Virus record (IMG/VR): IMGVR_UViG_2534681878_000029
DNA from: a virus
Taxonomy: Duplodnaviria > Heunggongvirae > Uroviricota > Caudoviricetes
Strand: one strand, 5' to 3'
DNA length: 27,110 nt
The position numbers and the translations under genes were made by a program. How positions within the stretch are numbered: the stretch's first letter is position 1; each line of letters opens with the position of its first letter. Shown piece after piece: positions 5,636-27,110 of this stretch. The notes beneath the pieces were generated by a model. The model made no database searches. It saw only the letters and a list, made by a program, of their open reading frames with translations, and was not told where the DNA came from.

Positions 5636-5677
5636 TGAACCGCCCCGGGTTTCCTGGAGAGTGTTTTATCTGTGAAC

Positions 5678-6891: not shown

Positions 6892-6944
6892 CCTGTTTAC
6901 CTCTTTCTCAGGGAGTTTAGTCTCCAGGATTTCCGGGCGGTTCA

Positions 6945-8994: not shown

Positions 8995-9005
8995 CCTGAA
9001 TAAAA

Positions 9006-9419: not shown

Positions 9420-9445
9420 TCCTGCTTTTGTCAGGGAGATCTACC

Positions 9446-10000: not shown

Positions 10001-10057
10001 AACCGTAGCACGTCGTATGCAAGATCGTGCTGCGGTTTATGCTTACCACTTGAAGAT

Positions 10058-10927
<870 letters not shown>

Positions 10928-11010
10928 CTAACCCTTTGAATTTACATAGCGCAAAAAGATACCTTTCCTCATAATGTGAGCTAATTTTATGTTTCGTTTG
11001 ATGATCGGGT

Positions 11011-11072
11011 CGGTCTCGAAAACCGGAGTAGGGGCAACTCTACCGGGGGTTCAAATCCCCCTCTCTCCGCCA
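11011..11072 (+). tRNA. Partial tRNA-Ser (anticodon CGA, serU-like), 3' ~62 nt only: att-site remnant, not a functional gene
   Basis: CGGTCTCGAAAACCGGAGTAGGGGCAACTCTACCGGGGGTTCAAATCCCCCTCTCTCCGCCA matches the 3' part of enterobacterial tRNA-Ser(CGA) from the anticodon stem onward; the 5' D-arm and acceptor strand are absent. Confidence 0.8.
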
Positions 11073-11654
11073 CTTTATCAATGACTTATCTCCCGACTTC
11101 CCGTCTTGCTTTTCCTAAACAGAACAATCGTAGAATATTCTTGAAGGGTTAGATCGTCACTGTTTTCTGTTCGATACTGTGACATTCAGCACTTGATTCG
11201 CTATGGATCTGACAGGAAGGTTTTGAGCGAAAATCTGCAGTTATTCAGTCGTTTTCTTATCGGTCACCATTATTCTTTTAGACATTGATCCTACAAAGCT
11301 GCCGTAAAGTTGGTGGTGGGAACTGAAGTTGCGTAGAGAAGGGGTCAATACCCGGAGGCAAACATGGGCTGGCAAAAGTGTAGCGGTATTAGGCGCAGCT
11401 ATTTAGCCTAGTTATGTTTTATGAAAACTTGATATCATATAAGTGTCTTACTTATTGGCTGTAAATAAGTTTTTCCTAAGGAATTGTTTCTTGAGTATCA
11501 TTTGTAACTGTAACGGAATTTATAATCCTTTGCTTTATTGTTACGGTATTTTTTATCACACCCTATTTTTAGTGGTTTTTTATACTGAAGTTTGGCAAAG
11601 TGAACTTTATATACATATACTTCATCCTGGTTTCAGTTAAATTGGGGGGATGAT

Positions 11655-12398
11655 ATGGCAACTACATGTTCAGTTATATTGATTTTGGAGTCCTTTGATG
11701 TTTATTTCGGAAAAGAGAGTGTGTTTCTGGAGAGAGGTTCATCTGTACTTGTCGACTCTAGCTCTAGAGATTTTTTCCTGACATATCCTGAAAGAGTGAT
11801 AGTGGCGGATTTTGGCGCTGAGTTTATTAGTCGCTATTTGAAAGCTAATAACTTAAGGGATATTTCTGATTGTAGGGAATATCCATCTTATTTAAAAATA
11901 AACTTTGCTGACTTCAGTTTAATTAAAGGATTAATTAGTTGGGCTAATCACTGTGCTGAATACATAGAAATTTTTGATGAGTCTATTGCTTTTACATGTC
12001 TCTCTGCATTTTCTTCTGAAAAACAATTTGGAGTATTTCTGTTTGGATGTTTGAAAAGCACAGGGGCTAAAGTTAAAACGATTATTCATACGGATTTATC
12101 TGCACCATGGCGTCTTAAGGATATATCATCAAGATTATATCTCAGCGAAAGTTTACTAAAGAGGAAATTGAAAGAAGAGGGGGTATCATTCAGTAAGATC
12201 ATACTTGATGAGAGGATGCAAATGGCTGAATATTTACTCAGCACTCGTTGTTATCCTATTAGTAAAGTAGCTAAGGTCTGTGGTTATGCCAGTGTCTCAT
12301 ACTTTACTTATGTATTTAGACGTTATTTTGGTGTTTCTCCAAGTCAATACTCTCAGAGGAGTTCAGAAAGTAAAATTCTTACTCACCAGGGAATCTGA
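11655..12398 (+). CDS. AraC/XylS-family transcriptional regulator (AppY/GadX-like)
   Basis: 247 aa, strong SD GGGGGGA before the ATG; N-terminus MATTCSVILILESFD resembles AppY (MDYVCSVVFICQSFD); C-terminal AraC-type HTH (...KVAKVCGYASVSYFTYVFRRYFGVSPSQY). Sits in an AT-rich segment. Confidence 0.8.
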   Translation: MATTCSVILILESFDVYFGKESVFLERGSSVLVDSSSRDFFLTYPERVIVADFGAEFISRYLKANNLRDISDCREYPSYLKINFADFSLIKGLISWANHCAEYIEIFDESIAFTCLSAFSSEKQFGVFLFGCLKSTGAKVKTIIHTDLSAPWRLKDISSRLYLSESLLKRKLKEEGVSFSKIILDERMQMAEYLLSTRCYPISKVAKVCGYASVSYFTYVFRRYFGVSPSQYSQRSSESKILTHQGI

Positions 12399-12439
12399 TC
12401 ATTGTTCTTGCCCCCTTATTTCCAGACAGGGGGGGTATC

Positions 12440-12805
12440 TTAAGTTAACGTTACCCGCTGACGTCGATATTCTCGCGGAGAGCGATAACCCAACGCACTG
12501 TGCGGATGGTTTTCATTGTAATGTTCGATCGCCACTGCAAGATTATGCAATGCCGTTCTTACATTCGGTTTCGGCATGAACGCGATGTAGTCTTCCTTCA
12601 TCGTTTTCACGAACCTTTCTGCAATTCCATTACTCTGAGGACTGCTGATTGCCGTTGTGCAGGGCTCCAGATTCAACTCTCTGGCGAACTGCCGTGTTTC
12701 ATGCGCTCTATACGCTGAACCGTTATCTGTCAGCCACTGGATGGACTGTTCCGGTACTTTATCGCCAAAGCGTTTTTCTATCGCTCCTAACATGACATCC
12801 TGCAC
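12440..12805 (-). pseudogene. IS3-family (IS2-group) transposase OrfB C-terminal fragment
   Basis: 121 aa ...[51 protein letters not shown]...[14 protein letters not shown] resembles the IS2 InsD C-terminus; no intact upstream catalytic domain or OrfA. Confidence 0.8.
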
Positions 12806-13152
12806 TGTCGCTTTATCGTAACCTCCCGTGCTTGCGGCCCAGTCTATGGCTTCACGATCGCAACAGTCCAGGGCGATTCATCTGGGCCAATCCTTGCTCA
12901 TAACAGGCATTCACTTCAGTCATGGCAGAAAGGTATGCATGCTGGAGAAGTCGTGAAAGAAAAGAAGACTGCTGCGCCGTTTGTCGTCACGTTTATCTTC
13001 ATTGGCTATGCAAGTCGTAATACAAGGTGGGACAAAACTGAGACACATAAGGCCTCGCAATGGCTTGCAAGGCTTTACATGTTTTGATGTGGTGGGACGT
13101 GTGAGCGCAGTGTTGATGGGGTAATGCTTTGAATTAGAAGCGGATTCTTATA

Positions 13153-13198
13153 ATTCGTAATGCGAAGGTCGTAGGTTCGACTCCTATTATCGGCACCA
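13153..13198 (+). tRNA. Partial tRNA-Thr (anticodon CGU, thrW-like), 3' ~46 nt only: attL core of the P4-like element
   Basis: ATTCGTAATGCGAAGGTCGTAGGTTCGACTCCTATTATCGGCACCA equals the 3' part of tRNA-Thr(CGU) from the anticodon loop; the upstream sequence is unrelated to the tRNA 5' half. Confidence 0.8.
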
Positions 13199-13360
13199 TC
13201 TCAACTTCCTCAAACGTCCGTATTAGTCCATAAAATCTCTGATTTATAACATTTTTTATTCTTTTAAGTCCATAGTAGTCCGTAACCATCCAGTAGAATC
13301 CGGTACTGAATGTGTATAGGATTGTGTATATGTTCCTGTTCGGTCTGGATTCCTATACAC

Positions 13361-14542
13361 ATGCCTTTAAACGATATGCAGATTCGCCGCGCTAAGCCTG
13401 AAGCTAAAGCCTATACATTTGGAGATGGGCTAGGGTTGTCATTACTTATAGAACCTAATGGAAGCAAGAGTTGGCGGTTCCGCTATCGCTATGCCGGCAA
13501 ACCCAAAATGATCTCGCTTGGTGTTTACCCAACGATCACCCTTGCCGATGCTCGTTCCCGTCGTGATGAAGCTCGAAAACTTGTGGCAGAAGGAAAGAAC
13601 CCTAGTGAGGTTCGAAAAGAGCAAAAGCTAGCTATGCAAACAGAGTCAGAGAACGCCTTCGAAAAGATAGCCAGAGAGTGGCATCAACTTAAATCTGCTA
13701 AATGGTCGGCGGGATATGCATCAGACATCATGGAAGCGTTTAAGAACGACATTTTTCCTTATGTCGGAACAAGGCCTGTGGGAGAGATTAAACCGCTAGA
13801 GCTGCTGAACGTTCTGCGTAAAATTGAGAAACGTGGTGCGTTGGAGAAAATGCGCAAAGTGCGGCAGCGTTGCTCCGAAGTGTTTCGCTACGCAATTGCA
13901 ACGGGTAGGGCGGAGTACAATCCTGCGGCTGATCTCTCCAGCGCTCTCGAAGTACACCAATCCAATCATTTCCCATTCCTAAAAGCTGATGAGATACCTG
14001 ATTTTCTACGTGCCTTAGAGGGTTACTCCGGGAGTAAGCTTGTCCAGATAGCCACGAAATTACTGATGATTACGGGTGTGAGAACCATCGAATTACGCGC
14101 GGCATTATGGCAAGAATTTGATCTGGATAACGCTATTTGGGAAATTCCTGCTGAAAGGATGAAAATGCGTAGGCCACATCTTGTGCCCTTATCATCTCAA
14201 GCGGTAGATTTACTCAATGAACTCAAGATCATGACAGGGAACTATCGTTATGTTTTTCCAGGGCGGAACGATCCGAATAGGCCAATGAGCGAAGCGAGTA
14301 TAAATCAAGCCATTAAGCGTATTGGGTATGGAGGAAAAGTCACTGGACATGGTTTTCGTCATACCCTTTCTACAATCCTGCATGAGCAAGGTTTTGAGAG
14401 TGCTTGGATTGAAATCCAGTTGGCTCATGTAGATAAAAATTCTATTAGGGGGACTTATAACCATGCTCAATATTTTAGTGGAAGGAAGTCTATGATGGAC
14501 TGGTACAGTAATTTGATATTTGAAAGACTAAAAAGGAGTTAA
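13361..14542 (+). CDS. int: P4-type tyrosine integrase (IntA/IntS-like, DUF4102 N-domain)
   Basis: MPLNDMQIRRAKPEAKAYTFGDGLGLSLLIEPNGSKSWRFRYRYAGKPK... with the C-terminal R...HGFRHT...Y catalytic signature; directly downstream of the tRNA-Thr fragment. Start moved to the ATG at 13361 because the track extension overlaps an inverted repeat. Confidence 0.9.
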   Translation: MPLNDMQIRRAKPEAKAYTFGDGLGLSLLIEPNGSKSWRFRYRYAGKPKMISLGVYPTITLADARSRRDEARKLVAEGKNPSEVRKEQKLAMQTESENAFEKIAREWHQLKSAKWSAGYASDIMEAFKNDIFPYVGTRPVGEIKPLELLNVLRKIEKRGALEKMRKVRQRCSEVFRYAIATGRAEYNPAADLSSALEVHQSNHFPFLKADEIPDFLRALEGYSGSKLVQIATKLLMITGVRTIELRAALWQEFDLDNAIWEIPAERMKMRRPHLVPLSSQAVDLLNELKIMTGNYRYVFPGRNDPNRPMSEASINQAIKRIGYGGKVTGHGFRHTLSTILHEQGFESAWIEIQLAHVDKNSIRGTYNHAQYFSGRKSMMDWYSNLIFERLKRS

Positions 14543-14545
14543 TTT

Positions 14546-14962
14546 GTGTCTCAACCACTTTCGGAAATATTGACATGGGATGATGAACAATGGGAGGTAT
14601 TTGTCCATGATTGGCTTATTGTCTGTAAATCAGATGATTACCCGTGGAGCGAACGTTTGGGAGGAGCTGGAGATAAAGGTAGAGACGTTGTTGGATATAA
14701 ATCGGATCCTAACGTAGAAGGTTATTCTTGGGATAATTATCAATGCAAACTGTACAAAAAAAGTTTAGGGTTCTCTGATGTTGTAGTTGAGTTTGGAAAA
14801 CTTATCTATTTTACTCTGAATGGTGATTATCCCATCCCTCAGAAGTACTTTTTTGTGGCACCCTATGATTTATCTACTACATTTTCTAATTTATTGAAAA
14901 ATAAAAACGAGCTTAAAAAAGCAGTCCTTGATTCATGGGATTCAGCAATTTCAAAAAAATAA
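14546..14962 (+). CDS. Mrr-like PD-(D/E)xK nuclease-domain protein (candidate effector, N-terminal part)
   Basis: GTG start 4 nt after the int stop with SD AAGGAG at 14533-14538. Motif GGAGDKGRDVVGY ... YQCKLYKK (residues 39-72) matches the Mrr_cat pattern g-DgG-D ... QcK. AT-rich. Confidence 0.6.
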   Translation: MSQPLSEILTWDDEQWEVFVHDWLIVCKSDDYPWSERLGGAGDKGRDVVGYKSDPNVEGYSWDNYQCKLYKKSLGFSDVVVEFGKLIYFTLNGDYPIPQKYFFVAPYDLSTTFSNLLKNKNELKKAVLDSWDSAISKK

Positions 14963-15552
14963 CTAAAAAGATTGATATTCCATTAGATGATGAAATAAAA
15001 AAATATATTGAGGATTTTGATTTTAGTATTTTTTACTCTCTACCCTTATCATTGATTTTAAATGATATTGCAAATACACACCTTTATTTTAAGTACTTTA
15101 ACGAGCTGTATGTCGTGAGAATCCCTCCAAATGAAATTCCAACATACAATTCAAAAAAAGAGTCTGTATATGTTAATGCACTGCTTCAAGCCTATTCAGA
15201 GCATGGAAATAAAACTTATAGTTCTTTCTTAGAGCTTGATGATCCATACAGACGACACTTTAATAATAGTAGAAATGATTTTTATTTTGCATCTTCGCTT
15301 GAGGTTTTTGTCCGCGAAGTATTTAAAGATGATGTATTCAAAGCATTGAAATGTTACATTTCATCTTCAATTGAACCCGTCTTTTATGAAGACCATAATT
15401 ATGCATTTATTAGGTGTAATGCAGTCTTGAAGCAGGCTGTTCTGACACCAATTGCACATTCAGTACTATCAAAAATATGTGAAGCAAATGATAAAAAAGG
15501 AATATGCCATCATTTGGTTAATGATGGTGAAGTAATTTGGACGGTGAGATAA
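14935..15552 (+). CDS. Hypothetical protein; possibly the C-terminal continuation of the preceding ORF via -1 frameshift at an A7 run
   Basis: 205 aa ORF overlapping the previous one by 28 nt in the -1 frame; the overlap contains AAAAAAA (14953-14959) followed by the 0-frame stop; no recognisable motif. Confidence 0.5.
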   Translation: MGFSNFKKITKKIDIPLDDEIKKYIEDFDFSIFYSLPLSLILNDIANTHLYFKYFNELYVVRIPPNEIPTYNSKKESVYVNALLQAYSEHGNKTYSSFLELDDPYRRHFNNSRNDFYFASSLEVFVREVFKDDVFKALKCYISSSIEPVFYEDHNYAFIRCNAVLKQAVLTPIAHSVLSKICEANDKKGICHHLVNDGEVIWTVR

Positions 15553-16010
15553 TGGTTAGAATTTATAATTCAAGTTTAGAAGTGGCATGTCGAATGGCGA
15601 AAGTGCTCGTCGCTATTTATCCTTCTTCATTAAGCCTTGAACGGCTTATTTGTTTTGATTTTATTTTAGTAAATCTTAAGGATTTTTTACCTGAAGAGAT
15701 TAGTCTTCATCCTCCAATACCCCGTAGAGATGCTCAGTTAGCCCTAAAACGAGAGATTGTTTTAGAATCATTGGCTTTGTTGCAAGGCTATGAACTAGCC
15801 TCAAAAATTTATACACATCGTGGTTTTGTATATAAAGCTTCTGAAAAAACATATGCATTTACAAATTCTCTACATAATGAATATGTTGCGCAGATGGAGC
15901 ATAATATAAATTTGGTGGTTAAGTTATATAGTGATATTCCTGATGAGCAGTTGCAATCAATTATAAAAAATAAAATTGGCAAATATGATATGGAATTTAA
16001 TTATGAATGA
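15552..16010 (+). CDS. Hypothetical small protein (middle component)
   Basis: 152 aa from the ATG at 15552, overlapping the upstream stop as TAATG (translational coupling); no recognisable motif. Confidence 0.5.
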   Translation: MVRIYNSSLEVACRMAKVLVAIYPSSLSLERLICFDFILVNLKDFLPEEISLHPPIPRRDAQLALKREIVLESLALLQGYELASKIYTHRGFVYKASEKTYAFTNSLHNEYVAQMEHNINLVVKLYSDIPDEQLQSIIKNKIGKYDMEFNYE

Positions 16011-16635
16011 CAATTTTTTTACGTTCAGAAAAATAAAGGTAACCGGATTCAATAAATTAGATGCTATAATTGAATTTGGTTCTAAATTGACTATTTTATA
16101 TGGTGGTTCTGACTCTGGAAAAACATACATATATTATTTGATTCGATATTTATTAGGGAGTGAAAAACTAAAAAATAAAGATATCGATCATGCTCAAGGT
16201 TATGATTTAGCCTATCTGGAATTTAATTTTCAAGGTAGGGTAATGACAATTGAGAGGTCTCTTCAGGATAGCGCCCATTACAGATTATATGATTCGAGCA
16301 TTGAAAATGTTAGTGAAGCTAATCTGTTGATGGTTTTTTCCAAAAGTGCTTCGTCTAAAAAGAGTTTTTCATCATACTTTTATGGTAGGTTGAATTTCAA
16401 AGAGGCTAAAGTAAGAACAAACTTAAGTAATACTCTTCATAAATTTAATCTTAATAATGTTTTTGAATTTTTTTGTATTGATGAATTAAGAGTGTTAACT
16501 GAGAAGTCGTTAATTCTTTCTGATATTCCTAGCGAGGAGACAAAAAGAAAGTCTGAATTTAAATTCCTTTTAACTCAGAGAGATGATACTAACTCCTTAG
16601 CAGAAAAACCAAATAAAAAAGCAAGATATTTTTAA
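15985..16635 (+). CDS. ABC/SMC-like ATPase, N-terminal head with Walker A
   Basis: FRKIKVTGFNKLDAIIEFGSKLTILYGGSDSGKT: the SMC/RecF/RecN-type N-terminal strand followed by P-loop GGSDSGKT (nt 16102-16125). Start uncertain (ATG 15985 or 16003). Confidence 0.6.
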   Translation: MIWNLIMNDNFFTFRKIKVTGFNKLDAIIEFGSKLTILYGGSDSGKTYIYYLIRYLLGSEKLKNKDIDHAQGYDLAYLEFNFQGRVMTIERSLQDSAHYRLYDSSIENVSEANLLMVFSKSASSKKSFSSYFYGRLNFKEAKVRTNLSNTLHKFNLNNVFEFFCIDELRVLTEKSLILSDIPSEETKRKSEFKFLLTQRDDTNSLAEKPNKKARYF

Positions 16636-16665
16636 AAAAATCAAATTGCAAATATTTATGAGGAA

Positions 16666-17256
16666 TTGAAAGCGCAATTAATTTATCCTGAATATGATCA
16701 AGTCATTGTTTCAAGAGAACTTGAGAAAGTAGAGCAAGATATTGAATCATCGAAAGATATATTGAAAGGTATTGTTGATGCACTTGATGATAAGAAGCAA
16801 TTATTAAAAGAGTTAAGTGATGAATTATATTCAATCAGTGACAGGGAAAAATACTTATCATTACTCATTGAAAGATTTAGTCTTCTTAAAGACCAATACT
16901 TTATAGATCTACAAAGAATAGATGTTGTATCACAGGCGAATTTCTATTTAAATAATTTTGCAGATATTTATTGTGAGTTCTGTAATACACCGCAAAAAAA
17001 AGAAAATGAAATATCATATGATGATTGTTTTTTGTCGTGTAATGCAGAAAAATTGAAAATCAAAAGCCAGCTGAAAGGATTAATTGAATCAATCGGATCT
17101 AATGTTCGCGAACATGAATTAATTATGTTAAGAAAAAATGATGTTAATGAAATTTATCAATCAGAAAAAAGTGATTTTAAGACGTTAGAAGATAAAAATA
17201 TAAAACAATACATTCATCTCTTGAATCACTTTATGAATATAAAGACAATCTTTTAA
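16666..17256 (+). CDS. Coiled-coil segment, same frame as the preceding ORF and separated from it only by a single TAA
   Basis: 196 aa rich in heptad-like K/E/L/I repeats; the track start is TTG with no convincing SD; in frame with 15985-16635 across the TAA at 16633-16635. Confidence 0.5.
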   Translation: MKAQLIYPEYDQVIVSRELEKVEQDIESSKDILKGIVDALDDKKQLLKELSDELYSISDREKYLSLLIERFSLLKDQYFIDLQRIDVVSQANFYLNNFADIYCEFCNTPQKKENEISYDDCFLSCNAEKLKIKSQLKGLIESIGSNVREHELIMLRKNDVNEIYQSEKSDFKTLEDKNIKQYIHLLNHFMNIKTIF

Positions 17257-17822
17257 TGGATCACACAAAACATAGCATTCTATCTTCATTACAAGATAAA
17301 GAAGATGATGTTGACGAACTTAAATACTCCGCCGAGGACTTTGACTCCTTAACAGTAGCTGATTTGTATGATATAGAAATAGCGATGCAAGACTTTTTGA
17401 ATGATATAAATTTTGAAAATTCTAAAGATAACAAAGTGCGATTTGACGAAGATACATATGACTTTAATATCAATGGGAAACGCCGAGGAATGTTTGGTAA
17501 AGGTACCCGTGCAGTAATGCATGCTATATTTACCATTTGCTTTGCGGAATTTTTATCAAGAAAAGGGAATCCATTCATTGGATTTGTTGTGCTTGATAGT
17601 CCATTAGTGACGCACTTTGATAAAGATAGAGGGGGTTCTCTATCGGATGTTAATAGCGTCAGTCTCAGTGATTCATTTTATCACGCATTAATCAAAAGGG
17701 ACTATAATTTCCAGATTGTAATTCTTGAGAATAAAGGTCCGACGTTCCAAATAAAAATTAATGATGCAAATAAAATCCATAACTTAAATAAGAATGGAAG
17801 CTCTGGTTTTTATCCTGTTTAA
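17256..17822 (+). CDS. ABC/SMC-like ATPase, C-terminal head with signature-like and Walker B motifs
   Basis: ...RRGMFGKGTRAVMHAIFTICFAEF (signature-like region) followed ~20 aa later by IGFVVLDSP (Walker B-like hhhhD); ATG overlaps the upstream stop as TAATG. Confidence 0.55.
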   Translation: MDHTKHSILSSLQDKEDDVDELKYSAEDFDSLTVADLYDIEIAMQDFLNDINFENSKDNKVRFDEDTYDFNINGKRRGMFGKGTRAVMHAIFTICFAEFLSRKGNPFIGFVVLDSPLVTHFDKDRGGSLSDVNSVSLSDSFYHALIKRDYNFQIVILENKGPTFQIKINDANKIHNLNKNGSSGFYPV

Positions 17823-18231
17823 TACATTAAAAATATAACTGCTAATTGGGGTGCTCGAAATTATATTTCGTTTCGAGCGCTCAGTTCATTTCTAAATAAT
17901 TTGCAAAATTATTTTGGGTACTTTCGCCTCTACACTTCCTTCGGGTGGTTCCACAATAATGGATCTCACCGGCGTTTGATATTTTATAATCTAACCCCTT
18001 AGCGCGCGCAGCCCCCCACGCCTGCTCGCTTCGCTTAACAGACTGGTTTTCATGCATTCCGCAAATCGTCTCAGAAGCCACCACACAAGGGCTTTCGCGT
18101 CAAAAATGGTGCATGAGAATCATGCGTTTTCATGCGCTATAGACATGCACTCATGCGCTCTCAGGCCAGCCAGGGAAAAGGCGTAAAAAATCCCAGTACT
18201 GGACCGGGATTACGTGGGCTTTTTTTGCTAA

Positions 18232-18504
18232 TCAGACAGGAATTTGCTGACGGCTTGACAGCTTTGACGCGGAGCCATAGCGATTGAGAGTTTGCTGTTG
18301 TTTTTCCGGCATTTGTGCTTTCTCTGATTCCTGTTCATTGCGCCGGGGCTTCATGATTATCGTATCCACACTTTCCAGTGCGGTAAATGTGTAGGAACAT
18401 TCAAGATTCTGGCACTGATACCATGAGCGTTTAACCGATGGTGCTTCATAGGCGGAGGTTCTGGCGTGTGCCGTCGTACCGCATTCGGGACATTTAAGTG
18501 CCAT
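18232..18504 (-). CDS. Ogr/Delta-family zinc-finger late-gene transcriptional activator
   Basis: MALKCPECGTTAHARTSAYEAPSVKRSWYQCQNLECSYTFTALESV: the CxxC...AHARTS...QCxNxxC...TF pattern of P2 Ogr / P4 Delta. Confidence 0.85.
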   Translation of the reverse strand: MALKCPECGTTAHARTSAYEAPSVKRSWYQCQNLECSYTFTALESVDTIIMKPRRNEQESEKAQMPEKQQQTLNRYGSASKLSSRQQIPV

Positions 18505-18509
18505 TAATA

Positions 18510-19061
18510 TTACTCCTGCATGCCGTTAATGTAATCCAGACGTTGCTGAAAGCGCAGTTGTTGTGCAGGGGTGTAAGAGCTCTGGCAATCACGAACCATC
18601 ATGGGGTCAGGCATCACACCGGATTCATCCAGAATCATACGATAATCCCCGGCAATTTCAGGCGGTGTTATTGCCAGCTGGCGAACCAGAGCATTGCGTA
18701 ATATACGGGACGCAACGTCAACCCCTCCGCGCCCCTTCAGGAACGGAGCCAGTGCAGATGTCAGGGCTGCTCCATTCGCCTGCATAAAATTGCTGAGAGC
18801 GTCTTCTGTGCAGGCCTCCATCAGTTGATGCTGCGAGTAAATGCATTCGCGCGCAGCACAGTTAATTTGCCATTTCAGCACATCCAGATGTTCCCGCTGT
18901 AATTCGAGCTGTCGAGCATAATCTGCTGGTTTTTCCATGGCAGTGAGGAGTGATTCTATCTGTTGTTCAACGGCTTTTCGGCTCTCACTATGTCCAGCCC
19001 ACAGAATACGGGCATTTCTAAAACTGATAAGCGCTTGGTCTGGAGTGACTCGGGCCATCAT
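18510..19061 (-). CDS. psu: Psu-like protein (P4 polarity suppression / capsid decoration family)
   Basis: 183 aa; shares recalled P4 Psu motifs (KWQ[IV]N, HG[AT]ALA[AS]ALAP, TPAQ); co-oriented with the sid-like gene as in P4. Confidence 0.7.
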   Translation of the reverse strand: MMARVTPDQALISFRNARILWAGHSESRKAVEQQIESLLTAMEKPADYARQLELQREHLDVLKWQINCAARECIYSQHQLMEACTEDALSNFMQANGAALTSALAPFLKGRGGVDVASRILRNALVRQLAITPPEIAGDYRMILDESGVMPDPMMVRDCQSSYTPAQQLRFQQRLDYINGMQE

Positions 19062-19810
19062 ACTGCTTTCTCCTTCTCAGCACGTTCCTGACGAACCTTC
19101 ATTTTATGCATAGCTGCTGGAGAGAGTTTATTACTGAAATCCAGACGGGCCGCATAATCCGGGGCAACTCCCGCCAGTTTAAACACGGGGTCCTGTTCGG
19201 GCATCGCATCGTTAGTCAGAGCCGGTCTGGTGATATGTTTATGAATAAAATCTTTCAGCAGTGTGTCCGGGTCATTAACTGAATGCACCACACCGACAAC
19301 TGCGCTGGCTTCCCTGCCCATTGTTGATTTGAGCAGGCTTAGTGTCTGGATTAGTGCTTTTCCATGCGACTGCATAAAATCTTCCCAGATTTGTTTTGCG
19401 CGAATACCCACAAGGGTGTCGTGCGCGTGGATATACTTTCCGGCTAATTCCGCAGCCTCCTGCGGCAAAAGTGCATTTTCGCTTTCCTGAGCCGCCAGCA
19501 GCTCATCAAAATCCTCAAGCGTTTCTCGTCCCAGCGCAATTTCCGTGCGCAGTTTTTTCATTTCCTTTGAGACTACGCCCTGACTTTCACGAAATAGCGT
19601 GCGCCACTCCTCATTCAGGGCGTTCGTCGTGGCTTCCATTTCAGCGCGGCGCTGGCGGATTGTCGCAATATTATCCGCTGCCGCTTTTTGCTGACGACGT
19701 GCTTCAAGCCATGCAGATTTGGTGGCATTCACTTTCTCAAGCGCCTGTTGCGTCGAAACAGGGATAGAAATTTCAACGATCGGGTTATTGTTCTGTTCTG
19801 GGATTGTCAT
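19058..19810 (-). CDS. sid: Sid-like external scaffold protein (P4 capsid size determination family)
   Basis: 250 aa, Ala/Glu/Gln-rich helical protein upstream of psu in the same operon, divergent from the alpA/primase operon; resembles what I recall of P4 Sid (e.g. EEWRTLFRESQGVVS). Confidence 0.7.
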   Translation of the reverse strand: MTIPEQNNNPIVEISIPVSTQQALEKVNATKSAWLEARRQQKAAADNIATIRQRRAEMEATTNALNEEWRTLFRESQGVVSKEMKKLRTEIALGRETLEDFDELLAAQESENALLPQEAAELAGKYIHAHDTLVGIRAKQIWEDFMQSHGKALIQTLSLLKSTMGREASAVVGVVHSVNDPDTLLKDFIHKHITRPALTNDAMPEQDPVFKLAGVAPDYAARLDFSNKLSPAAMHKMKVRQERAEKEKAV

Positions 19811-19975
19811 GTCAGCACCTAGTGGTTTGTCGTGGTGTCAATTGTGCTGTGATGCATACAAAGCTGCCATTGAACGCCATTGTGCGAGCGACAAGACAAA
19901 GACTGAACCGCCCCGGACCTCTTTTGGCTAGCCAGAAAAGGCCTCGTTTAACTAAGGCTGTTTCAGACTTACCTT

Positions 19976-20196
19976 AACTATTCACTACTATTCACTTAGG
20001 TAAAAAAAATAGGTAATACAGAAGGTTATAAGGTGAAGGGTTGGCATGGCAGTATTCATCGACTGTTCATAACTGTTCACATGGGAATAAAATTATTTAT
20101 GGTATTTTTTCATAATGGGTGGTTTTTTTATTCCTCGTAGCTATTTGTTTTTTGCTCCTCACCACTATTCACCCTTATTCAGGAGTATTCAACAGG
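19976..20196. repeat. Cluster of ~9 degenerate octamer repeats T(A/G)TTCA(C/T): putative primase-binding iterons (P4 crr/ori-like)
   Basis: AACTATTCACTACTATTCAC (19977-19995), TATTCATCGACTGTTCATAACTGTTCACATGG (20053-20084), CACTATTCACCCTTATTCAGGAGTATTCAAC (20163-20193). P4 ori/crr use TGTTCACC-type octamers. Confidence 0.5.
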
Positions 20197-20743
20197 CACA
20201 TAAATAGACTGCATGTTTTTGCCGGGGAATAACATTTTCGCCTCTGGCCATGGTGTTGCATTTCATACTGATTTTTATAAAACTAGATCTGTCCGGTTCT
20301 TTATGGATTCATTCGGATATATTTTACGATTTAAGGTGATGTTATTTAATATCAAGGTTTTTATGCAGGCCCAATGTTTATAAGTTGGATGCGATTCAAA
20401 AATATGCCCGGAAATTGGGGCCTGCAATGCAAGGCCTCGTGTAGAAGTTGTACTGCCTTGCTGTATTGGCGGTGGGGTTAGCACTATCAGGTGCAATGAC
20501 CCATAGGATAGTAAACCCTGGGTGAATGGTAGTTCCTATTAATGCTCCTGTATTTATAGTCCGCAGGCATGGTATTTATTATGTCATTTTATATGGTTTA
20601 ATCGGGCTTTAAATTCCATAAAATCAATATGTGACGCTAAATAAAAAATGCGTGCGCAGGTGGTTTATATACACATAATAAGGAACTACCTGAACCCGGA
20701 TAAATTCATCCGGACTGTTGTGGAAATTAAAGAGGGTAGATAA

Positions 20744-21004
20744 ATGCGTAATATTTCTGTGTCTGCGCCAGCTCCTGCTGCGCCATTATTTCCTGTATCG
20801 AACCATCATGAGCGATTTTTACGCCTGCCTGAGGTGATGCACTTATGCGGGTTGTCCCGTTCGACCGTTTACGACCTGATCAGCCGCGATGCGTTTCCGA
20901 AGCAGATCCCGCTTGGCGGTAAAAATGTCGCCTGGGCACAGTCTGAGGTCAGCGCATGGATGGCGGACCGCATCAGCGCCCGTGGGCGGGGATGTGATGC
21001 ATGA
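20744..21004 (+). CDS. AlpA-family DNA-binding regulator (prophage excisionase/regulatory HTH)
   Basis: 86 aa; [52 protein letters not shown] is the AlpA/MerR-like HTH signature found in P4-like and CP4-57-like elements. Confidence 0.8.
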
Positions 21005-21554
21005 TGATACCTGCATACATTAAATACCTTTATTCTGGCTTGCTTACTGTCGTCATTTCCAGGTATAGTTTTTCCGCTGTCGCAAAATCGGCAGCCGGAA
21101 TTGGCGTTCCGTATAACTTATTGGCGACAATTGACGCCCCTTGCGTCTTTTTTTACGTCGTAGCTCAGGCACAACCATTTTCAGGGCTGTGGTGTTTATG
21201 CTTACACCATGGTTCTATCGAGATAATGGTAGTCCGGGCGGGGCAGCCTTCGGGCTGGCCGGTTTCCAATAAGGCCGGTTACGCCAACCCCGTTCGGGCT
21301 GCCACCAGTGAAATTGGCGTTTCCGGTGGTAGCAATAACCGCTACTTATTGGAGGCTGCCATCATGGCTACAATCCTCACCCCGTCACACCCGCAATATG
21401 TCTTTGTGTTTGCCGCAATCCGCCGTGCTGACACTCACCCCCGCATCTGTATGCTTCGCACTGTCTCCTGCGATGAGCGTTCCGCGCGCCGTTTGCTAGT
21501 CCGAGATTATGTACTCTCCCTTTCTGCACGGCTGCCTGCCGGGGAGGTGACGCT

Positions 21555-21776
21555 ATGAACCAGTTTGAGATTTCCTACGACGATGTTGTAAGGCTGAAAC
21601 ATTTACGCAATGTGGGTGAGTATGTAACTGGCATGGCAGTCCTGCAGGACTGTTATGAAAAGCCAGCAGGTGCCCAATGCGAACAACTGGTTTCCCTCAT
21701 TTATCTGATGACAGAGCAACTGGATGGAGTGGTGCAACGCTGCCATGACGACCTGATGAATGCGGAGGTGGCCTGA
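21555..21776 (+). CDS. Hypothetical small protein of the P4-like early operon
   Basis: 73 aa, ATGA start/stop overlaps with both neighbouring ORFs, co-oriented with the primase; no motif recognised. Confidence 0.45.
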
Positions 21777-22099
21777 TGATATGCTGTGAATCTCTTCTGG
21801 CACTTCGTGCCGCTCTGTATCGCCGTGCCGTTGCCTGTGCCTGGCTGGCTCTAAGCAATCATCAGGAACGTTATTCCGGCCTGACGCTCGCTGAACTTGA
21901 AGATGCCATAGCCCGCGAGCTGGAAGGGTTCTATCTGCGCCAGCATGGGCAGCAAAGAGGGCTGGAAATTGCCTGCGCGTTGCTTTCGGATCTGATGGAG
22001 TCGGGGCCGCTTAAAGCCTGTCCGGTTCTCTCACTGCTCGGAATGACGGTCATGGATGAACTTTGTTCCCGTCACCTCAACAAACCAGCGCTGCACTAA
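21776..22099 (+). CDS. Hypothetical small protein of the P4-like early operon
   Basis: 107 aa, coupled to the upstream ORF (TGATGA overlap) and ends 13 nt before the primase ATG. Confidence 0.45.
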
Positions 22100-22112
22100 G
22101 GAGGGCCGCACA

Positions 22113-24446
22113 ATGTCAGGAATGAAAGTTAGCCAGGCTGAGAAAGCAGCTCGGGGTCACTGGTCAAGAATTTTACCTGCGCTGGGCGTAAATGTACTGA
22201 AAAATCGGCACCAGCCCTGCCCGGTCTGTGCCGGGAAAGACCGCTTTCGATTTGATGACCAGGAAGGGCGGGGAACGTGGTTCTGTAACCAGTGCGGGGC
22301 AGGTGATGGCCTGGCGCTTGTAAGTAAAGTACTGGATGTAGGCATTAGTGAAGCGGCAGACAGAATAAACGGCATTATCGGAAACCTGCTGCCAGTATCT
22401 CAGGGAATGCTTGAATCTGGTTCTCCTGAAAAAGAGGACGGGAGAAAAGCTGCAGCAGTGCTGGCTGCCCGTTTGTTTGATAAGTCCCGCCAGACCACTG
22501 GCAATGCCTATCTGACGAGTAAAGGGTTTCCTGCACTGCCTTGCCGGGAATTAACCGCTATGCATAAAGTCGGTGGTGTGGCATTTCGCGCGGGAGATCT
22601 TGTCGTTCCATTGTATGCAGATGGAGAGCTGGTAAATCTGCAGTTAATCAACGCTAATGGGGGCAAATGCTTCCTTAAAGGCGGTCAGGTTAAGAATGCC
22701 TTTTACCTGGTTGAAGGTACTGCCAAAGCAGCCAAACGGCTCTGGATAGCGGAAGGATATGCCACCGCACTTACTATCAACTATCTGACTGGCGATGCTG
22801 TCATGGTGGCCTTTTCGTCCGTCAATTTCCTTTCCCTGGCGAGCATTGCCTGCAGTGAGTACCCAACGCACCAGATAATTATTGCTGCTGACCGCGATCT
22901 CAACGGTGCGGGGCAAACAAGGGGCGCAGCTGTTACCGGGGCCTGCAATTGCACAATGGCGCTCCCGCCTGTGTTTGGTGACTGGAACGATGCATTCACG
23001 CAAAACGGCGAAGAAGCCACCCGGCATGCAATTCATGAAGTAATAAAACCAGCTGTTGCCAGCCCCTTCGACACAATGAGCGAAGCTGAATTTACCGCGC
23101 TGAGCGTCAGCGAAAAAGCGCAGAGGGTAGTGGATCACTATAAAAATTCACTGGCAGTAGACCCGAACGGGCAGCTCCTTTCATGCTATGAGGCGGGGGC
23201 CTGGAAAGTTATCTATTACGCCGATTTTGCCCGTGATGTCGCTGCGCTGTTTCAGCGCCTCGACGCACCTTTTTCATCCGCGAAAATTGCGTCTCTCGTG
23301 GAAACCCTCAAACTGATCGTTCCGCAACAGCAGAATCCGGCGCGGCAACTTATCGGATTTCGCAACGGTGTGCTCGATACCCGGACAGGATTGTTCAGCC
23401 CGCACGATAAGAAGCACTGGTTACGTACGCTGTGCGAGGTGGATTACACGCAGCCCGTTGACGGTGAGTCACTGGAAACCCATGCCCCGGCATTCTGGCG
23501 CTGGCTGGATCGTGCCGCAGGTTTTAATCCTGAAAAACGGGACATTATTCTGGCTGCATTGTTTATGGTGCTGGCTAACCGTTATGACTGGCAGCTGTTT
23601 CTGGAGGTCACTGGCCCTGGCGGAAGTGGAAAGAGTATTCTTGCTGAAATAGCAACCATGCTGGCGGGTGAAGATAACGCGACCTCGGCAACCATTGAAA
23701 TGCTTGAGTCGCCAAGAGAACGAGCTGCGTTAATAGGTTTTTCACTGATTCGACTTCCCGACCAGGAAAAGTGGAGCGGTGACGGGGCCGGACTAAAAGC
23801 CATCACTGGCGGCGATGCGGTATCCGTTGATCCCAAATATCAGAACGCCTATTCAACCCACATCCCGGCGGTCATCCTGGCTGTGAACAATAATCCGATG
23901 CGCTTCACTGATCGTAGTGGTGGAGTTTCACGCCGAAGGGTGATCCTGCATTTCCCCGACCAGATAGCCCCGGAGGAACGCGATACCCAGCTCAAAGAGA
24001 AAATTGCCAGTGAGCTAGCGGTGATTGTTCGCCAGCTTATGCAGCGTTTCAGCGACCCAATGAGTGCCAGGACATTGCTTCAGTCACAGCAGAACTCCGA
24101 TGAAGCGCTCACCATCAAACGTGATGCTGATTCAGCTTTTGATTTTTGCGGCTACCTTGAGGTCCTACCTGACACCACGGGCATGTTTATGGGGAACGCT
24201 AATATTGTTCCACGTCAGCCTCGAACTTACCTCTACCATGCCTATCTGGTCTACATGGAGGCTAACGGCTATAAAAATACGCTCAGTCTGACCATGTTTG
24301 GCAAGGGGCTACCGTTAATGCTCAAGGAATATGGGCTGCAGTATGAGAAACGACGGACCAATCAAGGAATGCAGACTAATCTGGCCCTAAGAGAGGAAAG
24401 CAATGCTGACTGGTTGCCAAAATGCGATGAGTTTGCAGCGAAATAA
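22113..24446 (+). CDS. P4 alpha-like primase/helicase (zinc-binding domain, TOPRIM primase, D5-like SF3 helicase)
   Basis: 777 aa from the ATG at 22113 (SD AAGGAGG at 22099-22105). N-terminal CPVCAGKDRFRFDD...WFCNQCG zinc ribbon; Walker A GPGGSGKS in the C-terminal helicase; same length as P4 alpha. Confidence 0.9.
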   Translation: MSGMKVSQAEKAARGHWSRILPALGVNVLKNRHQPCPVCAGKDRFRFDDQEGRGTWFCNQCGAGDGLALVSKVLDVGISEAADRINGIIGNLLPVSQGMLESGSPEKEDGRKAAAVLAARLFDKSRQTTGNAYLTSKGFPALPCRELTAMHKVGGVAFRAGDLVVPLYADGELVNLQLINANGGKCFLKGGQVKNAFYLVEGTAKAAKRLWIAEGYATALTINYLTGDAVMVAFSSVNFLSLASIACSEYPTHQIIIAADRDLNGAGQTRGAAVTGACNCTMALPPVFGDWNDAFTQNGEEATRHAIHEVIKPAVASPFDTMSEAEFTALSVSEKAQRVVDHYKNSLAVDPNGQLLSCYEAGAWKVIYYADFARDVAALFQRLDAPFSSAKIASLVETLKLIVPQQQNPARQLIGFRNGVLDTRTGLFSPHDKKHWLRTLCEVDYTQPVDGESLETHAPAFWRWLDRAAGFNPEKRDIILAALFMVLANRYDWQLFLEVTGPGGSGKSILAEIATMLAGEDNATSATIEMLESPRERAALIGFSLIRLPDQEKWSGDGAGLKAITGGDAVSVDPKYQNAYSTHIPAVILAVNNNPMRFTDRSGGVSRRRVILHFPDQIAPEERDTQLKEKIASELAVIVRQLMQRFSDPMSARTLLQSQQNSDEALTIKRDADSAFDFCGYLEVLPDTTGMFMGNANIVPRQPRTYLYHAYLVYMEANGYKNTLSLTMFGKGLPLMLKEYGLQYEKRRTNQGMQTNLALREESNADWLPKCDEFAAK

Positions 24447-24455
24447 CTGACCTAA

Positions 24456-24476
24456 GACCGGCTGTGCCGGTCTTAA
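24456..24476. terminator. Perfect 9-bp stem hairpin AAGACCGGC-TGT-GCCGGTCTT between convergent genes (candidate bidirectional terminator)
   Basis: Inverted repeat 10 nt after the primase stop; no strong U-tract on either side, so function as an intrinsic terminator is uncertain. Confidence 0.4.
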
Positions 24477-24578
24477 ATCCGCTACAGGAAATTATCTCAA
24501 AATATATATCGATAAAATTTAAAAGTTATATGCTAAGGCGTCAGCGGAAAATGCATCTAATTCATTGTTAGATGATGT

Positions 24579-25535
24579 TTATTTTTGAATTGATTTAAAC
24601 ATCCCATCGAGTTGTAATTTATTTATGTCGGTTTTCTTTATGGCTTTAATTAAGTTTTCAATAACTTCCAAAGAAAAAATTACATCTTTCTTTTCAATTC
24701 TAACCCCCCCGTGGTGGCTGCAAGCATTAAGGATGTCCTTTGTAATTTCAACATCATTTTTCATTAATGGTTCATAGTCCAGAGCCTCAATAACAGAAAC
24801 TAAACTACCTAGCATTTGCTCTTGGTATTGAACGTTGTTTAAATGCATTATACGAATATTAACAAGCATGAGAATATATTCTAAATATCTCCTGGCAGTA
24901 TTTCCTTTCTCTTGTAAAGAATCACGATCATATTCCTCAATACTCATGACTTCATTATGTAAAGAGGCTATTTTGTGCTCTGCTAATGAAATATTTATCG
25001 CATCCATGAGGTTTCGTGAGAAGCCTGTAGATGTAACATGACCATTTGCGGGCCTTGTTAAAATACATGTAGTATAGCAATTTATATTTGGGGTCTGGAT
25101 TGTCTCATTTACTCTTTTAACCGTTCTATAAACGTCTACCATATAAGAACCTGAGTTTTCAAATGAACATGAAGAGCATTTTGTATTATATATTCTATTT
25201 AGAGATAACTGATTGTGATAGTATCCCTTTAAGAAAGCATATATAGTGTCATTAAACTCGACAAACACAACGGACTCAATATATATATGGAATTTATCAT
25301 TGGGGTGCCACTCTAATTCAAGTCTTCTTGTAGAGTCATCAAAGGAAAAGTTTGAAATAAAATCCCAGTTACCTAAATCTATAAAATCAACGATATTTCT
25401 ACCTGCACCATGGATATTTTTATTTATTAAAGTTGTGATTGAGTTTTTTATAATGTCCCAATCATGAATTTCATGATCGAATTTATTATTGATGGTTTCT
25501 TTTATTTGATTGGAAAAGTTTGAATAACTAGTCAC
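24579..25535 (-). CDS. Hypothetical AT-rich cargo protein in the second variable region of the P4-like element
   Basis: 318 aa, Asn/Ile/Lys-rich, much lower GC than the flanking primase gene; no recognisable catalytic motif by eye. Confidence 0.6.
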   Translation of the reverse strand: MTSYSNFSNQIKETINNKFDHEIHDWDIIKNSITTLINKNIHGAGRNIVDFIDLGNWDFISNFSFDDSTRRLELEWHPNDKFHIYIESVVFVEFNDTIYAFLKGYYHNQLSLNRIYNTKCSSCSFENSGSYMVDVYRTVKRVNETIQTPNINCYTTCILTRPANGHVTSTGFSRNLMDAINISLAEHKIASLHNEVMSIEEYDRDSLQEKGNTARRYLEYILMLVNIRIMHLNNVQYQEQMLGSLVSVIEALDYEPLMKNDVEITKDILNACSHHGGVRIEKKDVIFSLEVIENLIKAIKKTDINKLQLDGMFKSIQK

Positions 25536-25833
25536 TTGTTAGCCTCAAAATTAATAATGAGTATTAAAATTTAATTGATATTGTCTATAAAATGTAGCGA
25601 TGCAATTTTATTGCAACGAAATGATTTTTACAACATACCATTATCGCTAAACAAAATCGCACCCATCAAATCAACTTACGTTACAATCACTACAAAGCGA
25701 TTGCATTTAAATTCAAAACAGTTTTCTGTTGGGCGCATTTTTTGTTGTACTGGACTAAAGAGAAAAAATGGGGTAAGGAACAAATACCTTCCGTGCTCAA
25801 AAATTAGGTTTTTATGCACTTATTAATCAGTCA

Positions 25834-25853
25834 AGGTGAACAGTAAAGTGTTC
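25834..25853. promoter_or_regulatory. Inverted pair of TGTTCAC octamers (GTGAACA-gtaaag-TGTTCAC): putative primase-binding/origin-like site
   Basis: Same octamer family as the 19976-20196 cluster, arranged as a dyad. Confidence 0.35.
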
Positions 25854-26067
25854 ACTTCTTATCAATCGTTAATTTCATATCTTTTTGAATATTAATGAAA
25901 AAAAACACAATGAGTAGTATGAACAGTTTTCCCCCAAAAAAAGTTTTTTCTGCCTTGAGAATGCGCGGAAAGCGAACGCCTTCACCAATGTGTATAGGGG
26001 TGTGTGTAGTTTAAATCTTCTATTTTAATTTATGTATTAAAATCATTGTGTTGGTGGCGATTATTGG

Positions 26068-26085
26068 TTCCTATTATCGCACCAT
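26068..26085 (+). repeat. attR-like direct repeat of the tRNA-Thr 3' core (17/18 nt, one G deleted)
   Basis: TCCTATTATCGCACCAT versus TCCTATTATCGGCACCAT at 13181-13198; delimits a ~12.9 kb element. Confidence 0.55.
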
Positions 26086-26210
26086 TTAAATCAAGTAGTT
26101 ACCCCATATTTAAATACACCACGTTTCCTCCTGTGCCGCATTTGTGCCATTGTAACCCTGGCAATTAATCAAAATACTGTTCTGACATCAGGCAATGCAG
26201 GTGCAGACAT

Positions 26211-27110
26211 TTAAGCCAATTGCTGCCGCCATTCCTTAACGTGGTCAATCAGAGCGCGGAGCTTTGGTGCAATATTGCGACGCTGTGGGAAATACAGATA
26301 GAAGCCCGGAAATTGTGGAAGAAAGTCATCAAGCAGAGATACAAGCTTACCGCTTTCAATATACGGCCTGAAAGTTTCCTGAGTGGCAATTGTTATTCCT
26401 CCGCCGGCAAGAGCCAGCCTCAACATCAGACGCAGATCATTAGTCGTAATCTGCGGTTCAATCGCAAGGTCGAAAGCTCTCCCGTTTTCTTCAAATGGCC
26501 AGCGATAAGGCGCAACCTCCGGGGACTGACGCCAGCCGATACACTTATGATTCACAAGTTCACGCGGATGAACAGGTGTGCTGTTGGCTGCGAGATAGGA
26601 GGGAGAGGCAACGACCATTTCACGCTGCCTGCCGGTAAGGGGCACAGCAATCATGTCTTTTTCAATGACCTCTCCGAGCCTTACGCCAGCATCGTAACCT
26701 GCGGCCACGATATCGAATTCCTCATCCGTGACAACAATATCAAGCGTAACGGCTGGATTGGCTGCTGCAAACGAAGCGATTAGCGGACCTGAAAGAAATT
26801 CTTCAGCTATTGACGTCACCGCGATTCTGAGAAGTCCGCGTGGCACATGGTCAGAAACCATCTCTTCGAACGCTGCCTCAATACCGGATAAAGGTAATGA
26901 CAGCGATTTATGCAGCCGTTCTCCCGCTTCTGTCAAATTAACTGAGCGCGTGGTCCGCATTACAAGCATTGTCCCGAATGCATCTTCAAGGCGTCTTATT
27001 CCCTGACTGACCGCTGAACGGGTAACGCCCAGCCGTGCGGCGGCTTTACTAAAATTACTCTCTTCTGCTACCGCGATAAAAATGGGTAAAAGATTAAGAT
27101 CGATTTTCAT
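26211..27110 (-). CDS. LysR-family transcriptional regulator
   Basis: 299 aa; N-terminal LysR HTH (LNLLPIFIAVAEESNFSKAAARLGVTRSAVSQGIRRLEDAFGTMLVMRTTRSVNLTEAG) and C-terminal substrate-binding domain; ATG is the last three bases of the window (reverse strand). Confidence 0.9.
   Translation of the reverse strand: MKIDLNLLPIFIAVAEESNFSKAAARLGVTRSAVSQGIRRLEDAFGTMLVMRTTRSVNLTEAGERLHKSLSLPLSGIEAAFEEMVSDHVPRGLLRIAVTSIAEEFLSGPLIASFAAANPAVTLDIVVTDEEFDIVAAGYDAGVRLGEVIEKDMIAVPLTGRQREMVVASPSYLAANSTPVHPRELVNHKCIGWRQSPEVAPYRWPFEENGRAFDLAIEPQITTNDLRLMLRLALAGGGITIATQETFRPYIESGKLVSLLDDFLPQFPGFYLYFPQRRNIAPKLRALIDHVKEWRQQLA

Follow-up and report, generated by a model that had tools for sequence, protein, structure and literature searches.

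A catalytic triad has been proposed for PrrC, in which R320 and E324 are supported by both mutagenesis and chemical rescue and H356 by mutagenesis (PMC1484252). The precedent for the gene reported here is HepS of the prophage Gifsy-1, an anticodon nuclease that consists of a solo HEPN domain, is activated by the phage tail tip and acts in abortive infection (PMC13043305). In P4 satellites, the main defence hotspot lies between int and psu. A 2026 survey described the interval between the primase gene and the attachment site (att) as a minor hotspot and assigned to it 7% of the P4 systems (PMC13586616). Here, we analyzed a stretch of 27,110 nucleotides (IMG/VR record IMGVR_UViG_2534681878_000029), which is called the window and to which all coordinates refer. 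An open reading frame (ORF) of 318 codons at 24579..25535 on the minus strand was found in the primase–att interval of a P4-like satellite, and it encodes WP_000205213.1, a member of an uncharacterised two-domain family. The ORF had been noticed in a first reading of the sequence (the original prediction), and both the program-made ORF list and RefSeq placed it at the same coordinates and in the same frame, the RefSeq label being "hypothetical protein". In the reading that we favour, with a probability of about 0.55, the product is a toxin that acts in abortive infection as a single protein without partners and is predicted to be a HEPN ribonuclease, and its gene is carried as cargo in the minor primase–att hotspot.

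Predicted structure and the C-terminal HEPN-like domain

The AlphaFold2 model, built from an alignment of 33 sequences, was confident (pLDDT 87.6, pTM 0.83) and consisted of a beta-rich N-terminal domain (about residues 1–165) and a helical C-terminal domain (170–317). In the model, the C-terminal part (about residues 166–318; 24582..25040, minus strand) adopts a HEPN fold, with a four-helix up-down bundle, an insert between helices 2 and 3 and a similarity to solved HEPN domains. The best structural matches of this domain were MNT-associated HEPN proteins and HepT toxins, with the HepT toxins 7ae2, 8xdj and 5yep at 10.5–10.7, and further matches were 4nqf, HI0074, the sacsin HEPN domain and Csm6 (8.6–8.8). 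A remote-homology search on a predicted structure had been proposed as a check in the original prediction. With the full model, Foldseek against the PDB returned nothing at E below 0.02, and the matches to RnlA and OAS-type proteins were not significant.

Residue conservation was determined from an alignment of 82 divergent members with a mean column identity of 14%. Only R215, E219 and H274 were invariant, and the near-invariant positions were D50 and D58 (98% each), S273 and K/R161 (96% each), N270 (95%), G277 (93%), and N212 and N181 (91% each). Helix 2 (204–229) carries N212-x2-R215-R216-x2-E219-x3-K223, and the codons for R215-R216-Y-L-E219 are located at 24879..24893 on the minus strand. 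Helix 2 of HEPN domains has a conserved acidic residue, typically in the form Ex3[KR] (PMC3710099), and in this family the invariant E219 is followed at residue 223 by lysine in 73 of the 82 members and by methionine in the O157 protein. In the model, helix 3 comprises residues 261–273 and the following loop residues 274–281; therefore, N270-x2-S273-H274 is predicted to occupy the canonical HEPN site, the H274 site (24705..24728, minus strand) lying at the usual place of the Rx4-6H motif (PMC3710099). N270 corresponds to the polar position that normally follows the motif arginine. HEPN families with the histidine but without the arginine have been described, namely c2405 and PaREP1 (PMC3710099).

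The profile libraries gave no assignment of their own. No model of Pfam, NCBIfam, PHROG or PADLOC matched WP_000205213.1, and PADLOC-DB 2.0 gave 0 families at E up to 10. When the 82 members were scanned individually against the profile libraries, only sub-threshold matches were obtained. The C-terminal domains of two divergent members weakly matched AAA_13 of Pfam, an ATPase model for proteins of the PrrC/RloC type, at positions 619–711 and 628–688 of its 713 (E about 1e-3; 18 bits versus a gathering cut-off of 36). One member weakly matched DUF4145 (positions 3–82 of 88, E 0.023) and other members weakly matched PaREP1 and HEPN_AbiA_CTD, with all of these matches, including those to AAA_13, below the curated cut-offs. 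Sequence searches of the PDB with the full, C-terminal and N-terminal profiles retrieved only designed proteins or noise.

Under the favoured reading, the HEPN domain would be a metal-independent endoribonuclease with H274 as acid/base, R215 would supply the arginine missing from Rx4-6H, and E219 would be the acidic residue of helix 2, as in the PrrC triad. The Asp-rich N-terminal domain would keep the enzyme inactive, probably as an oligomer, and would sense a protein or nucleotide cue derived from the phage. Once released, the ribonuclease may cut tRNA or mRNA and stop translation, and the infection would then be aborted to the benefit of sister cells carrying the satellite.

Several points weigh against this reading. 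No curated HEPN, Abi or defence model reached its threshold, and the canonical Rx4-6H motif was absent, position 269 being L, A, S, T, C or M in 82 of 82 members and never R. Some HEPN domains are non-catalytic, including regulators such as MtlR, and HEPN domains fused to a nucleotidyltransferase are usually without the ribonuclease residues and serve the transferase (PMC3710099). The acidic cluster of the N-terminal domain, described below, could itself be catalytic. The grouping of R215, E219 and H274 in space is deduced from the assignment of residues to helices in the model. The original prediction had described the gene as possibly abortive-infection or toxin-like; this agrees with the predicted HEPN fold and its invariant R, E and H, while toxicity and defence themselves are what we infer from them. 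Finally, the gene is intact and near-identical in 306 genomes of the O157:H7 lineage with no visible antitoxin; therefore, a toxic product would need intrinsic control.

Conservation and distribution of the family

The WP_000205213.1 gene is real and under purifying selection, since dN/dS (the ratio of nonsynonymous to synonymous substitution rates) was 0.06–0.13 in comparison with homologs that were 71–80% identical. The start codon is GTG at 25533–25535, and a GAGG ribosome-binding site is located 7 nucleotides upstream of it (25543..25546, minus strand). The homologs start at the same position, and both the start codon and the ribosome-binding site are conserved. A word-indexed search identified 36 close clusters, at 44–100% identity apart from one outlier at 27%. 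The hosts of the close clusters were Escherichia, Citrobacter, Providencia, Pantoea, Pectobacterium, Proteus, Enterobacter, Serratia, Salmonella, Klebsiella, Buttiauxella and Aeromonas, and every named member was called "hypothetical". When 1.84 billion representatives were searched exhaustively with a profile, only 108 proteins were identified at E up to 1e-3, most of about 320 residues and one of them from Vibrio cholerae; again, all named members were "hypothetical". The family thus has about 100 representatives, which come from Enterobacterales, Vibrio, Aeromonas and metagenomes. Full-length homologs were found down to about 18% identity with the invariant motifs kept. The gene had been termed an orphan in the original prediction, which is correct with respect to annotation but not with respect to homology, given the 36 close clusters and 108 distant representatives.

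A decaying or spurious frame in AT-rich junk DNA at the end of the satellite was also considered. The low GC content, the long non-coding leader and the lack of a database annotation are in agreement with such a frame, but the dN/dS values, the invariant motifs in homologs of about 18% identity, the confident predicted fold, and the conserved start codon and ribosome-binding site are not. The conservation data rule this explanation out, and we give it next to no probability.

The gene was present in 306 of 5,426 complete E. coli genomes, and all copies were at least 97% identical and almost all belonged to the O157:H7 lineage. The 1.85 kb around the gene (24400–26250) was 100% identical to many complete E. 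coli O157:H7 genomes, and the window represents an O157:H7 chromosome. A scan of species-representative genomes found one locus only. The phage and plasmid collections gave one distant phage match and one plasmid match; therefore, the family is not a typical phage or plasmid cargo.

Profile searches with the single domains recovered the family itself. The C-terminal profile retrieved only fragments and known members, the N-terminal profile retrieved members with the same two-domain architecture, and neither domain was found in another architecture in these searches. A sub-family of 470–530 residues (P0068, P0074, P0075, P0079, P0085 and others) has an N-terminal extension of about 170–200 residues, and 5 of the 82 scanned members weakly matched DUF3775 (best E 3e-7). 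Two members of about 600 residues, P0049 and P0088, have unannotated C-terminal extensions. Besides the weak DUF3775 matches, no recognisable extra domain was found in the extended members. Three HEPN-domain-only entries, P0143 and P0144 (142 residues) and P0145 (108 residues), were 74–100% identical to the C-terminal half and may be truncated gene calls or pseudogene remnants.

With respect to the literature, the accession WP_000205213.1 was absent from the searchable papers and from the supplements of Rousset 2022, and the protein was not among the systems named or tested in the main text of Rousset 2022 and of NAR 2026 gkag898. According to the supplement of Rousset 2022 (PMC9122126), a P4 hotspot system that comprises two genes, is labelled "Cytidine deaminase" and comes from E. 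coli O157:H7 FRIK944 was synthesised and was inactive against the phage panel of that study. Strain FRIK944 also carries the WP_000205213.1 ORF, and this ORF is not listed among the tested systems of PMC9122126.

The N-terminal domain

The N-terminal alpha/beta domain (about residues 1–165; 25041..25535, minus strand) has a weak likeness to Pol-beta nucleotidyltransferases in the model. Most of the remaining structural matches listed for it were cores of the Pol-beta type, namely Pol lambda (5.6), LinB (5.5), CdnE (5.0), poly(A) polymerases and terminal uridylyltransferases (up to 5.1), MenT1 (4.3) and CapRel (3.9). These matches are suggestive of a putative nucleotidyltransferase-like core. 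The domain contains the motif T-x-G-h-V-I-V-D50-F-L-D53-x-x-N-W-D58, in which D53 is 80% conserved. From the residue pattern, the conserved acidic cluster may bind metal or nucleotides, which would make the domain more than a sensor of proteins.

The protein could be primarily a nucleotidyltransferase, with the N-terminal domain as the catalyst through D50, D53 and D58 and the HEPN-like lobe binding the substrate or providing a base, as in the kanamycin (KNTase) and lincosamide nucleotidyltransferases or in HalB of Hailong. Its product would be a nucleotidylated small molecule, protein or tRNA, in the style of MenT/AbiEii or toxSAS, or a nucleotide polymer serving as a signal. The strong conservation of D50, D58 and K/R161 speaks for this, as does the existence of a P4-borne Hailong protein with nucleotidyltransferase-like and HEPN-like domains (PMC13586616). 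However, the transferase hallmarks hG[GS] and the DxD/E pair were absent, the acids being spaced D50-x2-D53-x4-D58 with no G[GS] before a helix. Alignment of the family profile with KNTase by hhalign was not significant (probability 0.09; the KNTase sequence was verified against 1kny and 6nlt), and none of the nucleotidyltransferase families of Pfam matched even at E up to 10. Furthermore, a HEPN domain fused to a transferase typically loses the catalytic histidine, whereas H274, N270 and Ex3K are the best conserved residues here, and there was no HalA-like partner among the ORFs of the window or in the V. cholerae cassette described below. We therefore consider a primary nucleotidyltransferase unlikely.

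The protein might also be a single-chain equivalent of an MNT-HEPN toxin-antitoxin pair, in which a degenerate nucleotidyltransferase-like N-terminal domain (D50, D53, D58) gates a non-canonical HEPN ribonuclease in cis and a phage cue releases the ribonuclease. Gating might occur by self-nucleotidylation or by binding of a nucleotide or phage ligand, and helix 2 would be the new location of the catalytic arginine. This proposal is speculative and rather improbable in our estimation; if it were true, it would represent a new sensor-effector architecture that functions as a one-gene cassette in satellites, integrons and conjugative elements.

Loci of the homologs

The gene travels as a one-gene module between mobile elements, often beside defence systems, and no partner gene was conserved across the family loci. 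Three members were located at the ends of P4-like satellites: the gene of the window; E. coli P0004 (77% identical), which is convergent to the 3' end of a P4-type primase gene in a P4-like satellite; and Providencia P0009, which follows an Ogr/Delta gene at the edge of a P4-like element carrying a Toprim primase. E. coli P0032 was found directly after an integrase gene just downstream of proA, where it adjoins a PDC-M60 A/B/C candidate system, and Providencia P0037 was found on an island with AlpA and an integrase. Citrobacter P0002 lies on a conjugative element (ICE), where it is surrounded by genes for type IV secretion and for coupling proteins and has a DNA methyltransferase gene on one side and ArdC on the other. 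Septu PtuA/PtuB (E 4e-200 and 1.5e-98) and a type I restriction-modification system are located within a few kb of it. Pantoea P0012 is encoded on a lambdoid prophage, a metagenomic relative of 477 residues is located beside an MmeI-type restriction-modification gene, and the copies in Proteus and Serratia are lone AT-rich islets between housekeeping genes.

The V. cholerae homolog (7001–7978 of L025) is a one-gene superintegron cassette, with V. cholerae repeats (VCR) at 6950–6991 and 8064–8105; therefore, the family gene is a self-sufficient module. Twelve VCR repeats delimit the cassettes of this superintegron (L025, 1–8739), and a TacA/GNAT toxin-antitoxin pair and DUF645 genes are found elsewhere in the array. 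An all-against-all blastn comparison of the upstream and downstream flanks revealed conservation only between near-identical loci and at the primase 3' end, and no conserved small ORF was found. Rfam gave no credible match in the flanks.

These loci also bear on whether the gene might serve the mobile element selfishly, by addiction or stabilisation, or might regulate it through RNA binding, with no role against phages; a toxic or regulatory HEPN protein would then favour the retention of any element that carries it. In every case the gene is found on DNA that is mobile or variable. One such location is a superintegron, a setting in which toxin-antitoxin cassettes are common, with the TacA/GNAT pair in the same array; the gene is also absent from the curated defence models, and non-catalytic HEPN regulators such as MtlR exist (PMC3710099). 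On the other hand, classic addiction requires an antitoxin, and no antitoxin gene or RNA was conserved alongside. The gene is repeatedly located beside defence systems and in satellite hotspots, and its invariant residues of catalytic type argue against a purely binding role. An addiction or regulatory function is thus doubtful in our view, and a HEPN ribonuclease acting in abortive infection is preferred.

The satellite element and the surroundings of the gene

The P4-like satellite is integrated at thrW and spans roughly 13154–26092. Its attL is a perfect 45-nucleotide 3' fragment of the tRNA-Thr gene thrW (13154..13198, plus strand), which was identified by an exact match of 25 nucleotides to the thrW 3' end and which lies directly upstream of the satellite integrase ORF (13310–14542). 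The attR region at the right end (26069..26152, plus strand) is a degenerate thrW/ptwF-like sequence recognised by its similarity to phage attP records: it was 86–87% identical to phage sequences (94% in one record), several of which are annotated as attP "type CP4-6, similar to thrW and ptwF". ARAGORN detected no intact tRNA gene in the window. As the thrW fragment of attL begins at 13154 and the thrW/ptwF-like attR begins at 26069, the WP_000205213.1 gene lies inside the element, between the primase gene and attR and about 530 bp from attR, which is the position given in the original prediction. The P4 core genes annotated between the att sites are integrase, Ogr/Delta, Psu, Sid-like, AlpA-type helix-turn-helix, Icd-like, DUF5375 and primase. 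The locus is thus an att-delimited P4-like element with a variable interval between the core genes and att. The original prediction had called this interval the P4 non-essential region, a term that we regard as imprecise, the classical P4 non-essential region being the int–psu side (gop/beta/cII) and not the primase–att interval.

The 957-bp gene has a GC content of 31.3%, with 28.5% at third codon positions. In windows across 24501–26000, GC was 0.31–0.32, versus 0.52–0.54 across the primase gene, so the very low GC noticed at first was borne out. The GC content of the gene was 28–35% in every homolog examined, whatever the host, and the distant flanks in Serratia had a GC content of 63–66%. 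Together with the relatives in unrelated mobile elements, this supports the claim that the gene was acquired separately as cargo.

The P4 alpha-type primase-helicase gene (22056..24446, plus strand; RefSeq product "primase-helicase zinc-binding domain-containing protein") is convergent with the WP_000205213.1 ORF, and a GC-rich hairpin (24449..24479) separates the two convergent stop codons, as had been described. The hairpin begins 3 nucleotides past the primase stop codon. Its core, AAGACCGGC-TGT-GCCGGTCTT at 24455–24475, pairs perfectly over 9 bp, and the stem as a whole reaches 14 pairs over 24449–24479. The folding energy of the RNA was -19.3 kcal/mol on the plus strand and -27.5 kcal/mol on the minus strand (z-scores -5.3 and -5.6, respectively), none of 200 shuffles folded equally well, and a terminator-like score was obtained on the minus strand. 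The hairpin and the primase 3' end were also kept beside the homolog P0004.

An AT-rich non-coding leader of 533 bp (25536..26068) extends from the gene to attR, as determined from the sequence and flank comparisons. In this leader, promoter-like hexamers were no more common than expected by chance, and flank comparison and Rfam identified no conserved small ORF or RNA. The leader was also examined for the P4 alpha-binding iteron TGTTCACC. One exact copy and one inverted 8-mer were found, and this was rejected as chance level, with at least one match in 48 of 100 shuffles. An inverted pair, GGTGAACA / GTGTTCAC, at 25835–25855 resembles this iteron, and each of its halves occurs once in the window, which is again chance level.

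The int–psu hotspot of the satellite (14546–17822) is very AT-rich (GC 0.28–0.35) and contains five or six co-directional ORFs, two of which are annotated in RefSeq as "ABC-three component system protein" and "ABC-three component system middle component 2". With this cargo and the WP_000205213.1 gene, the satellite therefore has two separate cargo loci. In strain PV15-279 (L001, NZ_AP018488.1, 2386–4144), a truncated integrase gene and IS1203 lie between thrW and the ABC-three-component genes, whereas the integrase of the window is intact; a 15-bp offset between the two sequences is located somewhere between psu and the primase 3' end. An imperfect direct repeat of 22 nucleotides (AATGTGTATAGGnnTGTGTnTA, 86% identical) was found just inside both ends of the satellite, at 13309–13330 and 25987–26008, 12,678 bp apart; the copies could be arm-type binding sites of the integrase or could be due to chance. 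The DNA upstream of attL (1–13150) belongs to another insertion at the same site. Its annotations include pinE, an AraC regulator, a GIY-YIG protein and a second integrase, an arrangement that points to tandem elements at thrW.

Comparison with known systems

If the favoured reading is confirmed, an undescribed single-gene family would be added to the HEPN abortive-infection toolkit, and a PrrC-like site without the regulatory ATPase of PrrC would provide a compact system in which to study the silencing and triggering of a lone HEPN nuclease. The gene would also exemplify the little-studied primase–att hotspot, whose cargo of this kind is missed by current defence-finding models. The gene, which is fixed in the O157:H7 lineage of E. 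coli (306 complete genomes), could affect phage susceptibility, phage typing or phage-based control of this pathogen.

The family shares with PrrC/RloC the pattern of an R-x3-E...H triad, R320-x3-E324...H356 in PrrC and the invariant R215-x3-E219...H274 here, a likeness of pattern with no significant alignment. PrrC/RloC are anticodon nucleases of the HEPN class that restrict T4 and latent suicide ribonucleases on variable DNA, and the family would resemble them in this respect as far as its predicted activity goes. However, the family has no ABC/Rad50-like ATPase (the AAA_13 match was not significant), has an unrelated alpha/beta N-terminal domain of 165 residues instead, and shows no obligatory linkage to type I restriction-modification systems.

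HepS is similarly a single gene without a partner that is encoded on a mobile element, and its HEPN effector must both sense and act. It differs in being a single-domain protein with the canonical R100-x4-H105, whereas members of the family carry a further domain at the N-terminus and have no arginine in the motif. The authors of the HepS study left out homologs of more than 250 residues or with additional domains (PMC13043305), and we detected no sequence similarity between the family and HepS.

MntA-HepT is the system to which the C-terminal domain points by structure, with MNT-associated HEPN proteins and HepT as its matches. In contrast to that system, there is no adjacent MNT gene in the window or in the one-gene cassette of V. 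cholerae, both domains are in one polypeptide, and the family motif is NxxSH[DH], with neither the R nor the Y of Rx4HxY. KNTase, LinB and HalB have a nucleotidyltransferase-like domain followed by a HEPN-like domain, an order that the family would share through its weakly Pol-beta-like N-terminal domain. The family differs from them in lacking a G[GS]/DxD signature and in having the residues of the HEPN catalytic site as the most conserved part of the protein. Hailong is a two-gene HalA-HalB operon in which HalA is a transmembrane channel, and the family has no HalA partner.

The RNase LS toxins RnlA/LsoA are comparable in size (about 320–360 residues) and in the arrangement of one or more N-terminal alpha/beta domains before a C-terminal HEPN domain; they are anti-phage toxins on mobile DNA, a role that is predicted for the family. 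Nevertheless, RnlA has the canonical motif and the downstream antitoxin RnlB, the family has no conserved adjacent ORF, and the Foldseek matches to RnlA were not significant (E 0.17–0.7, TM-score at most 0.20).

Compared with known P4 hotspot cargo, the gene is undetected by the PADLOC models and lies outside the main int–psu hotspot, which is held here by the ABC-three-component genes, but it is like such cargo in its att-delimited element, its primase–att position, its AT-rich composition and its exchange between elements. As a probable HEPN protein of the abortive-infection or toxin kind that is carried in a satellite hotspot, the protein would not be categorically new, while the family to which it belongs is itself undescribed.

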